From a virus: a stretch of 64,000 bases of DNA. Made by a program: the position numbers and the translations under genes. This document shows, one piece after another, positions 60,705 through 62,895 of the stretch. Numbering within the stretch: the first letter of the stretch is position 1; each line of letters starts with the position of its first letter. Location: positions 23,611-87,610 of the IMG/VR virus record IMGVR_UViG_3300032265_000877. One strand, given 5' to 3'. Below the pieces are notes generated by a model that had not been told where the DNA came from, did no database searches, and saw nothing but the letters and a program-made list of their open reading frames with translations.

Positions 60705-60781
60705 CTGATAGTTTCCTGAGAGTCGGCTGATAGTCCATTCTCAGGGAACTCTCAGGGAATAAATTGGGTGTAGTGTCCGTT
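60705..60781 (+). promoter_or_regulatory. ECF promoter P1 (GGAAT-N18-GTT) with phased MprA-like boxes
   Basis: CTGATA/CTGAGA/CTGATA at 60705/60716/60727; TCTCAG-N5-TCTCAG 60739-60755; GGAAT 60756, GTT 60779. Confidence 0.8.
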
Positions 60782-60833
60782 ATACAGGTACAGGGCAAGC
60801 ACAAGGCAAGCCCGAATAACAAGGGAAACGATT

Positions 60834-61382
60834 ATGAATCAGCAGGAAATGGGCAAGGCTGTATCAGATTATTACGACACTCTCTACTCTGTCGCGTTTA
60901 ATCTCACACGCGATCATCACAAGGCGAATGATCTCGTGCAGACTACGGCAGAGAAAGCGATCAAGGCGAGCGATTCCTTCTCAGAGGGTAATCTCGTTGG
61001 GTGGCTCGTTACGATTCTCCGTAACACTTTCCGTAACGATTACCGCGCGGAAGATCGCATCTCTTTCTCCTCTATTGAGGAACTGATCGAGCAGGGCACT
61101 ACGGCTGAGGATTCACTTCTCGCCAGCGATGAGGATAGCGAGCAGGGTTCAGATTCTCGCTTCTCTAGCGCGAGCGCGGAAAGCGTGTTCCTCTCTGGTG
61201 GCTACTCTCCAGAATTGGCAAGTGCCTTGCAGAATATCTCAAAGGCTCACCGCGACATTCTTCTTCTCAAGGCTGAGGGCTACTCATATGAGGAAATAGC
61301 AGAAATCCTCAAGATCGAAGTTGGCACAGTAATGAGCCGACTAGCCCGCGCTCGTAAGTCAATAAAGGAAGTGCTCGTATGA
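60834..61382 (+). CDS. ECF RNA polymerase sigma factor, SigH/SigR-like
   Basis: LYSVAFNLTRD..ANDLVQ.T..KA..F..GNL.GWL..IL.NTF.N.YR (sigma2); EGYSYEEIAEIL....GTVMSRL.RAR (sigma4). Confidence 0.92.
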   Translation: MNQQEMGKAVSDYYDTLYSVAFNLTRDHHKANDLVQTTAEKAIKASDSFSEGNLVGWLVTILRNTFRNDYRAEDRISFSSIEELIEQGTTAEDSLLASDEDSEQGSDSRFSSASAESVFLSGGYSPELASALQNISKAHRDILLLKAEGYSYEEIAEILKIEVGTVMSRLARARKSIKEVLV

Positions 61383-61480
61383 GCCTCCTAAATCCCCTAG
61401 TCTCCGGTCTCCCAATCACAGTAATGTGGTTGGGAGCTGGGATCTGTTTCGCAGTAGCCTACTTTAAGGGAGGAAAATAG
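61379..61480 (+). CDS. Single-TM micro-protein (33 aa) coupled to sigma gene
   Basis: MSLLNPLVSGLPITVMWLGAGICFAVAYFKGGK; ATGA overlap. Confidence 0.55.
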   Translation: MSLLNPLVSGLPITVMWLGAGICFAVAYFKGGK

Positions 61481-61612
61481 ATGGGCAAGATGAAGGAATT
61501 GGCACTTAGGATCGCAGAGTGTGAAAAGTGTGAGGGCGCGGGAATCCTGAGCCACACGCGGGACGATGTGGACTATGAGTGGGCGTGTGAGTGTAATCCA
61601 TACGGACTCTAA
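61481..61612 (+). CDS. Zinc-ribbon micro-protein (43 aa)
   Basis: MGKMKELALRIAECEKCEGAG..WACECNPYGL; GGAGG RBS. Confidence 0.7.
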   Translation: MGKMKELALRIAECEKCEGAGILSHTRDDVDYEWACECNPYGL

Positions 61613-61618
61613 GAAGTG

Positions 61619-61638
61619 GGGCGCGGGAAACCGCGCCC
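61619..61638 (+). terminator. GC-rich hairpin after sigma operon
   Basis: GGGCGCGG-GAAA-CCGCGCCC; weak U-tract. Confidence 0.6.
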
Positions 61639-61794
61639 TATCTATTAGCCCTGTCAAGGGCTAGGCAATTGGGTTTGGCATAGTCCAACACAAACATATG
61701 AACGGCATTCGGGTAAGGCGTAATAAATTGAACCCTATAAAAGACATTAGACAAAAGAGAGCAAAACGTCTAACCCTCAACTAGCACTTCATTC

Positions 61795-61847
61795 CTGAGA
61801 GTTACCTGATAGTTAGCCGAGGGAATAATATGGGGGGTCTATTTGTT
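61795..61847 (+). promoter_or_regulatory. ECF promoter P2 with phased MprA-like boxes
   Basis: CTGAGA 61795, CTGATA 61806; GGAAT 61822, N18, GTT 61845. Confidence 0.78.
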
Positions 61848-61888
61848 CTATAAGTGTAAGACCACTACTACTACAAGGGAGCAAGACA

Positions 61889-62179
61889 ATGGATAGATTT
61901 TATACAAATAACACCTATGATGTGTCTGACGCGCAGGATTTTAAAGTGCGTGTAGCAGATCCACTAGACGCCGACATATATTTAGGTATGGAGGCTAGTG
62001 GCTGGGCTGGGAGCAATTCAGTATCTTTCTACGCTATCCAGAACCTACGCTTAACGCGGGCTCAGGCTAATCAGATCATTGACGCGCTATCTAACGCTAT
62101 CGGTGAGTATGAGGAGGCTAAGGCTCTCGCAGAGTATGACTCTCAGCGCGACTCTATCTTCGAGGAGGAGTCAGTATGA
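61889..62179 (+). CDS. Early hypothetical protein
   Basis: AAGGGAG RBS; first gene after P2. Confidence 0.75.
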   Translation: MDRFYTNNTYDVSDAQDFKVRVADPLDADIYLGMEASGWAGSNSVSFYAIQNLRLTRAQANQIIDALSNAIGEYEEAKALAEYDSQRDSIFEEESV

Positions 62180-62415
62180 GCGTCCTAGAGGAAATTCGCT
62201 ACACGCACTCTCTCCAACAGCATAGCGTGACGCGTGAGATGGTGGCGGAGGAATTCGCCACCCTCGAAAGTGACTTCGACAAGGGCTACGCCCTCGATCA
62301 GATTATCGGACACCTAGAGTTAGATAAGAAGCACGGACAAGAGTCGTTCCCACTATGGACGGCGTGGCGTGTAATCCGCGCAATAAATGCAGACTCCTAC
62401 GGACTGAGGGACTAA
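62176..62415 (+). CDS. Early hypothetical protein
   Basis: GAGGAG RBS, ATGA overlap. Confidence 0.72.
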   Translation: MSVLEEIRYTHSLQQHSVTREMVAEEFATLESDFDKGYALDQIIGHLELDKKHGQESFPLWTAWRVIRAINADSYGLRD

Positions 62416-62690
62416 TGGGACACAATTTTGCTGAAGACTTGGCTAGTGGGGATCTACGACTCTCACTAGAAGATCAGATCGGTATCCACCTATCGAGTAA
62501 TCATTACCCGCCAGTACCGCAGAGTATGGTCGCGCCTTGCATAGAGGCTATCGAACTCTGTAATGCAGGAGATCAGGGAGAATTGGTAGACCTGCCGGAC
62601 GGAATTCTATGGAAAGGCGAATCACAAGCGCCAGCCTACGCCATAGTAGAGGCTCACCACCTAGACCCTTGGATAGAGTACTTCGAGTAA
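62415..62690 (+). CDS. Early hypothetical protein
   Basis: Start MGHNFA at TAATG overlap; HLSSNHYPPVP..IVEAHHLDPW. Confidence 0.75.
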   Translation: MGHNFAEDLASGDLRLSLEDQIGIHLSSNHYPPVPQSMVAPCIEAIELCNAGDQGELVDLPDGILWKGESQAPAYAIVEAHHLDPWIEYFE

Positions 62691-62703
62691 CTATCCAAAA
62701 CGA

Positions 62704-62738
62704 TAAGCGCCCTATTCCCTTGGGGCGCTTATTTATTT
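62704..62738 (+). terminator. Intrinsic terminator
   Basis: TAAGCGCCC..GGGCGCTTA followed by TTTATTT. Confidence 0.7.
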
Positions 62739-62832
62739 ACTCCCTAAACGGCATTGGGTTAGGCATTCAACACAAACATTGTGGCATTGGGAATAGGGCA
62801 TAAATCAACAAACGTTCCCTATTTTTTATTCC

Positions 62833-62895
62833 CTGAGAGATTCCTGAGAGTTATCTGAGAGTCGGTGATGGAATAAATAGGGGGGTGTAAGTGTT
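62833..62895 (+). promoter_or_regulatory. ECF promoter P3 with phased MprA-like boxes
   Basis: CTGAGA at 62833, 62844, 62855; GGAAT 62870, N18, GTT 62893. Confidence 0.8.

Follow-up and report, generated by a model that had tools for sequence, protein, structure and literature searches.

IMG/VR record IMGVR_UViG_3300032265_000877 (G000 in what follows) is an 87,610-bp viral genome with a guanine plus cytosine (GC) content of 46% that is linear according to IMG/VR and 92% complete according to CheckV. The window analysed here is its right 64 kb, positions 23,611 to 87,610 of the record. Nearly all genes of the window point leftward; the exception is a rightward block from 60834 to 63887, outside which there are three isolated rightward open reading frames (ORFs) of at least 150 amino acids. 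This 3.2-kb rightward cluster begins with a gene for an extracytoplasmic function (ECF) sigma factor, and three of its four promoter-like sites are preceded by short arrays of CTGAGAG-type units repeated every 11 bp. The arrays are the subject of the present analysis, and they are read here, with some reserve, as probable binding sites of a host regulator of the OmpR/PhoB family. The arrays and the promoter-like sites, the latter found by pattern scan, are as follows.

60705..60733, plus strand: P1 distal array, CTGATAG / CTGAGAG / CTGATAG with an 11-bp period (unit starts 60705, 60716, 60727)
60739..60755, minus strand: P1 proximal pair TCTCAG-GGAAC-TCTCAG (TCTCAGGGAAC-TCTCAG), units of opposite orientation that abut the GGAAT at 60756
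60756..60781, plus strand: P1, GGAATAAA-N15-GTT, ECF-type promoter-like site before the sigma gene
61795..61812, plus strand: P2 array, CTGAGAG / CTGATAG (unit starts 61795, 61806; kept in relatives L001/L002)
61822..61847, plus strand: P2, GGAATAAT-N15-GTT, promoter-like site
62807..62832, minus strand: inverted GGAATAAA-N15-GTT, possibly a leftward promoter, immediately following the P3 units when these are read as TCTCAG
62833..62861, plus strand: P3 array, three CTGAGAG (unit starts 62833, 62844, 62855)
62870..62895, plus strand: P3, GGAATAAA-N15-GTT, promoter-like site
63470..63495, plus strand: P4, GGAATAAA-N15-GTT, promoter-like site with no array, before the helix-turn-helix (HTH) gene

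Phased arrays in front of ECF-type promoter-like sites

The full repeat unit in G000 is TTTCCTGAGAG with an 11-bp period, and the conserved part, CCTGAKAGT, is longer than the hexamer CTGAKA. There are ten units in total, and all pairs are exactly 11 bp apart. The pattern CTGAKA-N5-CTGAKA has six matches in the window compared with a mean of 0.04 in 100 dinucleotide shuffles (largest value 1), whereas the single hexamer is hardly enriched (78 seen, 64.1 expected); the departure from chance therefore lies in the 11-bp phasing. Across the entire 87,610-bp genome, phased pairs occur at the three array sites only. Sites of the OmpR/PhoB type are characterized by a core of 6-7 nt, direct repetition and a period of about 11 bp, which is one helical turn, and the arrays have all of these properties. 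A previous sequence-only reading of this DNA had located the arrays at P1, P2 and P3 as well as the TCTCAG-GGAAC-TCTCAG at 60739-60755 abutting the -35 element, and every coordinate was reproduced exactly on re-scanning. Its expectations that the phased pairs would exceed background and be confined to these sites genome-wide were likewise borne out. The site class that it proposed, OmpR/PhoB, appears sound in view of the direct 11-bp repeats and of the same box before bacterial regulator genes, described below.

Sites of the form GGAATAA(A/T)-N15-GTT begin at 60756, 61822, 62870 and 63470, each fronting an operon of the rightward block, and with the inverted site at P3 listed separately the pattern has no other match on either strand of the 87.6 kb. 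GGAAT and GTT 18 nt apart make up the consensus for SigR-type sigma factors. The fixed spacing that marks an ECF promoter is identical in all four sites and recurs in the more distant relative G001, and as cognate sigma factors there are the phage sigma and, in each candidate host genome, a single similar protein. Between the last unit and GGAAT the spacing is variable, at 16, 15 or 29 nt from start to start. Since an inverted GGAAT-N18-GTT runs from 62832 to 62807, the P3 array has promoter-like sites on both flanks; a 25-nt inverted repeat (I1) at the inverted site is 92% complementary to the P1 pair plus GGAATAAA. A scan of the three intergenic cassettes for the sigma-70 consensus found no site. 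One arrangement considered for P1, a class II copy of the host promoter, was rejected since the -10 element is misplaced for the 22-nt geometry of the bacterial boxes. A run of six G residues (G6) lies between GGAAT and GTT in P2 (61832-61837) and P3 (62880-62885), and another stands just 5' of the P1 array at 60696-60701 (TTAACCCTGGGGGGTGT); conserved in G001 and G004, the run could represent a further promoter copy in degenerate form, or a site of another kind.

Three further features of the cluster bear on what follows.

60834..61382, plus strand: phage ECF sigma factor of 182 amino acids (Pfam Sigma70_r2, Sigma70_r4_2)
62702..62733, plus strand: terminator-like hairpin closing the operon before the P3 cassette (hairpin scan)
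63522..63887, plus strand: protein of 121 amino acids with a weak sigma region-4-like HTH (Pfam Sigma70_r4, E 3.6e-4, under the cut-off)

The best NCBIfam model for the phage sigma is SigH_actino at 100 bits, under its cut-off of 251.55, and the protein is 40-42% identical to the single similar ECF sigma in each of five low-GC actinobacterial genomes. The 121-amino-acid HTH protein has no relative in G001-G003 by tblastn. The inverted P3 site points leftward into a block that is repeated at 62740-62800 and 61660-61720. This block of the second and third intergenic regions contains AACGGCATTSGGKTA, ATTGGGTTWGGCAT and CAACACAAACAT and ends at the hairpin at 62702-62733, which is two-way. A short leftward transcript could run from the inverted site into the repeated block. 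An Rfam search gave nothing near a gathering score, the block included, and a tRNA scan found none.

Arrays in relatives and in unrelated viruses

Relatives with DNA context include two IMG/VR contigs, G004 and G005, whose sigma is 87% identical to that of G000. They retain the P1 and P2 units and promoter-like sites nearly letter for letter and have one further pair upstream; in G004 (L002) the P1 distal array and the P2 units are exact. Within the P1 pair, the relative has GGAAAC where G000 has GGGAAC, and 60746 is changed from G to A in all four freshwater runs compared. G001 belongs to the same phage family at a greater distance (capsid 88% identical, neighbouring small genes 28-80%), and there (L086) two promoter-distal units are followed by GGAATAAA-N15-GTT before a different first gene. 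The arrays are conserved in G004 and G001 where coding DNA has diverged, and their retention in G004, G005 and G001 answers the conservation check that the sequence-only reading had proposed. Other searches reached less far. A megablast of 58000-64000 against a phage collection gave no match, the phage sigma found only distant matches among phages, and a metagenome scan with a sigma alignment returned bacterial ECF sigmas of 30-39% identity with no close relative among them. Sigma relatives of 84-96% identity exist at the protein level. A GC-rich locus with a sigma 32% identical (L005) has no CTGAGA units in the 600 nt upstream of and into the sigma gene.

Freshwater metagenomes from numerous studies contain parts of the stretch. 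Four of these runs have contigs that align to it, with 496 differences in total; among the 40 of these that were listed, one falls in a unit spacer, which does not allow sites to be ranked by conservation. In one freshwater run (X13) a contig joins 61742 to 62833, skipping 1090 bases, and represents a natural deletion variant without the P2 operon. Such a junction is expected of recombination between cassettes and, together with the further repeated blocks shared by the three intergenic regions, would fit a view of the arrays as functionless leftovers of a duplicated intergenic cassette. The units are nonetheless kept in diverged relatives and in unrelated phages with the 11-bp register intact, and this explanation is extremely unlikely.

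The exact 18-mer CTGAKAGTTTCCTGAGAG is present in 47 viral contigs whose flanks fall into 14 unrelated groups. Each locus has two to nine units in register, with at least three in 30 of the 47, and the 212 units together give the consensus TTTC-CTGAGAG. GC content lies between 44 and 50% in 42 loci and is 38, 41, 52, 52 and 63% in the others. The OmpR-type output domain (Trans_reg_C) was not found over its cut-off in any of the 49 array-bearing viral records searched (0/44 and 0/5), in agreement with the statement of the sequence-only reading that the window encodes no response regulator. The WhiB family occurs in 23 of 44 array-bearing records and, among those with a completeness of 90% or more, in 14 of 15.

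Several other motifs accompany the arrays. Palindromes resembling CRP/GlxR sites, TGTGA-N6-TCACA, number 24 in the 28 kb within 300 nt of the 18-mer as against 4 in 366 kb, and they lie near it in 21 of the 47 viral loci (L225-L268, L086, L087, L090); G000 has none. The motif CAACACAAAC occurs near arrays in eight of the 47 loci and twice in G000 (61686, 62768), just upstream of the P2 and P3 arrays. The DnaA-box-like TGTGGATAA, often in tandem, is found 21 times in the 28 kb and 9 times in the 366 kb, and its enrichment near the 18-mer at 10 of the 47 loci raises the question of whether the arrays could be iterons of a replication origin, or packaging sites, bound by a phage initiator or small terminase. 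In a second, complete phage type of 37-39 kb (G002/G003), which the pattern scan also found to have arrays, the units sit some 500 nt ahead of the terminase gene, within an extended AT-rich stretch between genes, as such a role might require. G000, on the other hand, has three separate promoter-linked arrays with no TGTGGATAA nearby and so lacks what is expected of origin iterons, and iterons are normally specific to one initiator, yet the unit is common to 14 unrelated contexts and to bacterial promoters. We consider an origin or packaging role very unlikely.

The two phage types with arrays are informative about the host. The capsid (71%) and terminase (53%) of G000 are nearest to Streptomyces phages of the BRock group, and it carries two WhiB-family genes, one at 16294-16518 (minus strand) of the genome, outside the window, and one at 52747-52932 (plus strand) of the window. 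According to PMC10202952, WhiB is found exclusively in Actinobacteriota and can serve as an actinophage marker; among our control genomes the family was found in Corynebacterium only. Atlas look-ups confirmed a ribonucleotide reductase and WhiB, and indicated no host. The 38-kb type (G002/G003) encodes WhiB and lacks an ECF sigma, and its six units lie between the terminase gene and a block of divergent genes. Its terminase is 78% and its portal 81-84% identical to those of OX376640.1 and OX376641.1, which are LanE43-AprE7 (E7) and LanE43-AprF5 (F5), the two cultured phages of 'Ca. Planktophila'. These phages measure 39.1 and 38.9 kb with 44.8% and 44.7% GC, and their host has 46.5% GC, according to the same source (PMC10202952). 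G000 and G003 share a fibre domain (49% identity over 312 amino acids), and no helix-turn-helix protein common to the two was found. All five viral records of the first set have 45-46% GC. The sequence-only reading had proposed reporter tests in M. smegmatis. A mycobacterial host was rejected on the grounds of the 46% GC, the freshwater runs and the relatedness to Planktophila phages, and those tests are unsuitable for such a freshwater phage.

The same box in bacterial genomes

When the 18-mer CTGAKAGTTTCCTGAGAG was searched in bacterial and archaeal genome contigs, with one genome per species, 53 loci matched, where about 35 are estimated for random sequence. Actinomycetota account for 27 of them, mostly Solirubrobacterales and Acidimicrobiales, and 15 of the 27 are associated with a gene pair for an OmpR-family regulator and its kinase. 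In 11 cases the match precedes the regulator gene by 16-247 nt; in two it stands ahead of a YceI-like gene at the head of the operon, and in another two it comes just after the kinase. None of the remaining 26, non-actinobacterial loci has a regulator within 250 nt. At L113, L137 and L146 the order is box, regulator, kinase and HtrA-like gene. Among solved structures, a set without MprA, the L137 regulator matches M. tuberculosis PhoP best, with 267 bits versus 181 for PrrA. Outside the Actinomycetota the 18-mer occurs in cyanobacterial contigs (L102, L115, L116, L122, L123, L127, L133, L136) and in Chloroflexota (L103, L107, L121, L128, L154); these loci are often intergenic, have further phased units in L102 and L127, and have no adjacent regulator gene. 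Two short contigs with arrays, L126 (1181 bp, in a Rhodobacteraceae bin) and L143 (3100 bp, in a Flavobacterium bin), resemble the 38-kb phage type and are probably phage contigs misplaced into bins.

A sample of 401 genomes of the class Actinomycetes had 61 sites of the two-unit pattern in 55 genomes, compared with about 14 sites for the reversed control. In 16 of the 30 loci fetched, an HtrA-like protease gene directly follows the box read as TCTCAG, in several cases with its ATG 22 nt away, and all five of the HtrA-like genes tested encode Trypsin_2 plus PDZ. In four loci the same strand carries a regulator some 2.07 kb upstream; three of these loci belong to the 16, and in the remaining one, L176, the HtrA gene is lost at the end of the contig. 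The box lies 22 nt before the regulator gene in L182, three boxes in the other orientation precede CusR-like regulators, and one precedes an ApbE gene. The gene order mprA-mprB-pepD is that of a regulator, a kinase and an HtrA-like protease, and loci of this order do carry the box. The sequence-only reading had linked the arrays to MprA through TCTCAG-N5-TCTCAG, given there as the MprA box of M. tuberculosis. That link is supported in part, by the presence of TCTCAG-N5-TCTCAG before HtrA genes that follow regulator-kinase pairs; the regulator itself may or may not be MprA, and in the candidate host order it is nearer to the PhoP-like than to the MprA-like type.

That order is represented by G274, a single-contig genome of 1.33 Mb in which the loci examined have 46% GC. 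The box TCTCAGGAAACTTTCAG lies 22 nt before the ATG of its regulator, which is 57% identical to the PhoP-like protein of L137 and 49% to the MprA-like protein of L182. The regulator is present in 51 of 61 genomes sampled from the order (1.2-2.2 Mb). Of 30 loci fetched 28 could be parsed; 26 of these have TCTCAG-N5-NNNCAG and all 28 a loose form, and the distance from box to ATG is exactly 22 nt in 21. There is no further box match in the other 100 kb of these loci. A box at the regulator's own promoter is thus found in bacteria both at the 15 actinobacterial loci named above and at all 28 loci parsed from this order. The small genomes' own boxes have a degenerate second unit, and one genome of the order (G483) carries TCTCAGGAAACTCTCAG, which equals the phage 17-mer. 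No GGAA[TC]-N16-19-GTT was found in the 250 nt upstream of the host SigE-like gene. At L220 of G274 (8525-9975) the operon of regulator and kinase is convergent with htpX-like and lemA-like genes, and dnaK is two genes away, these three names having been assigned by eye from translations.

The bacterial loci bear on whether the arrays need a host protein at all. A phage-encoded DNA-binding protein, either the 121-residue HTH protein at 63522 or an unrecognised small protein, might bind them without any host regulator: the cluster encodes about ten small proteins without family matches, one of them with the weak sigma-region-4-like HTH, and phage repressors and activators often use repeated operators by early promoters. 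However, the unit, its period and the TTTC spacer are common to the 14 unrelated viral contexts, and the unit stands at bacterial regulator and HtrA genes as well. Neither the HTH protein nor the sigma has a relative in the six-unit type G002/G003, and P4, which drives the HTH gene, has no array. A phage binder is therefore unlikely. Because the box fronts bacterial regulator and HtrA genes and none of the 49 array-bearing viral records has an OmpR-type domain over its cut-off, a host two-component regulator probably binds the arrays.

A probable host regulator in phage gene control

The reading that we favor, as a likely but by no means settled one, is that a host OmpR/PhoB-family regulator binds the 11-bp-phased CTGAGAG units and so feeds into the rightward cluster, in a host that would be Nanopelagicales-like. 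The regulator would come from an actinobacterial regulator-kinase module that controls its own expression; in many Actinomycetota this module also includes a gene for an HtrA-like protease, and M. tuberculosis PhoP is its closest relative among solved structures. With two to five units placed upstream of three of the four ECF-type promoters, in a 3.2-kb cluster that begins with the phage sigma gene, the phosphorylated regulator would occupy one helical face in head-to-tail fashion. Once bound, it would set promoter output, most likely by activation from about -45 to -85, as an upstream activator for polymerase carrying either the host SigE-like sigma or the phage sigma. The state of the host two-component system would in this way feed into the phage regulatory cluster. 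In the more specific proposal of the sequence-only reading, the regulator would be MprA, the promoters would be early ones and envelope stress from adsorption or injection would be the trigger. Regulator binding, the sign of its effect and the signal relayed are, like the host, inferred.

Several observations weigh against this interpretation. The phage geometry is unlike the bacterial one: the bacterial box ends 22 nt before a probably leaderless ATG, whereas the phage units lie upstream of or abut a GGAAT -35 element and are mostly in the opposite orientation to the bacterial boxes. The P1 proximal pair does have the orientation of bacterial boxes toward their gene. The 53-locus total for the 18-mer is little above the chance estimate, so that only the placement of the loci is non-random, and its cyanobacterial and Chloroflexota occurrences are left unexplained. 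In the class sample, none of the roughly 29 genomes of 1.0-1.5 Mb has the two-unit CTGAKAG pattern in its strict form. E7 and F5, the nearest named relatives of the 38-kb array-bearing type, have no arrays, so the arrays are dispensable in that lineage. The host, most likely a low-GC freshwater actinobacterium of the Nanopelagicales kind, is deduced rather than demonstrated, and the runs containing the stretch are of DNA only, with no RNA run among them.

A last point concerns the host regulon. The combination of box, 20-24 nt and ATG has one match in four of five genomes of the G274 order, at the regulator's own promoter (G274 itself has none because its box has TTTCAG), and so gives no outline of a host regulon. 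The same result would suit a different role, in which arrays on replicating phage DNA act as a sink that titrates the phosphorylated host regulator from its own promoter and blunts the host stress response. The phage genome offers ten units for this, other viral contigs up to nine in one region, and the arrays occur in both orientations at varied promoter distances, so a sink is compatible with most of the data. What it does not require is that every G000 array stands just ahead of a promoter-like site, 15-16 nt away in two cases, and that G001 keeps the array-promoter pair. We hold a sink to be distinctly unlikely, and promoter control by the host regulator remains the preferred reading.

A broader proposal can be put forward only tentatively. 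Freshwater actinophages of many unrelated lineages may possibly have converged on one hub for sensing host state, in which regulator-box arrays together with CRP-like and DnaA-like boxes would time the regulatory programme. In the 87-kb phage this hub would be coupled to the phage ECF sigma as a hybrid positive-feedback switch copied from a host envelope-stress circuit.

How the arrays relate to known systems can be considered at the level of the promoter, the regulator and the phage. At the promoter, GGAAT-N18-GTT before an ECF sigma gene is what is seen in the autoregulatory promoters of SigR, SigH and SigE. Here, unlike in those cases, the sigma is phage-encoded, the four sites are confined to its 3.2-kb cluster, three of them have regulator boxes, and the P2 and P3 spacers contain the G6 run. 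With regard to the regulator, the arrays resemble PhoP-type sites in their 11-nt direct units and in that the box-adjacent L137 regulator is closest to M. tuberculosis PhoP. S. coelicolor PhoP uses direct repeat units of 11 nt in variable number (PMC2275107), and the core of the phage unit differs from the Streptomyces one. The MprAB modules with PepD in M. tuberculosis and HtrA in C. glutamicum are similar in that a box precedes regulator genes and HtrA-like genes after regulator-kinase pairs; they differ in that the candidate-order regulator is nearer to the PhoP-like than to the MprA-like protein. In C. glutamicum, MprAB is positively autoregulated and binds the htrA and sigE promoters, and its printed motif is TKTTAAGAAM, unlike the phage box (PMC12113857). 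The sequence-only reading had suggested a comparison with boxes upstream of mprA, sigE and pepD in candidate hosts; the box was found at regulator and HtrA-like genes.

With respect to phages, a limited literature search gave nothing relevant on regulator boxes in actinophages among the eight records listed. The nearest precedent is in cyanophages, whose genes are described as controlled by host PhoBR through Pho boxes on the evidence of gel shifts (PMC10976474, which cites Zeng and Chisholm 2012). Host two-component control of phage genes is thus already known, and both systems would have direct-repeat boxes for a host OmpR/PhoB-family regulator and no phage-encoded one, with host signalling setting the expression of phage genes. 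In other respects the two are unalike. The box here is of the TCTCAG type, belongs to another regulator clade and occurs in actinophages, in arrays of up to nine units in strict 11-bp register as opposed to one Pho box.

Actinobacteria of the Nanopelagicales type rank among the commonest bacteria of fresh water, and it is only recently that phages of theirs were brought into culture (PMC10202952). If the arrays do bind the host regulator, then in a major lineage of freshwater bacteria the host's physiology would gate the expression of phage genes. The box is also a cheap computational handle; because it marks the autoregulated regulator in 28 of 28 candidate-order loci, it could help link uncultured phages to hosts without spacers from clustered regularly interspaced short palindromic repeats (CRISPR). 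Compared with the cyanophage Pho-box case, the regulator would be of a different clade, and its targets would be regulatory genes, including a phage ECF sigma behind ECF-type promoters, in place of metabolic genes.

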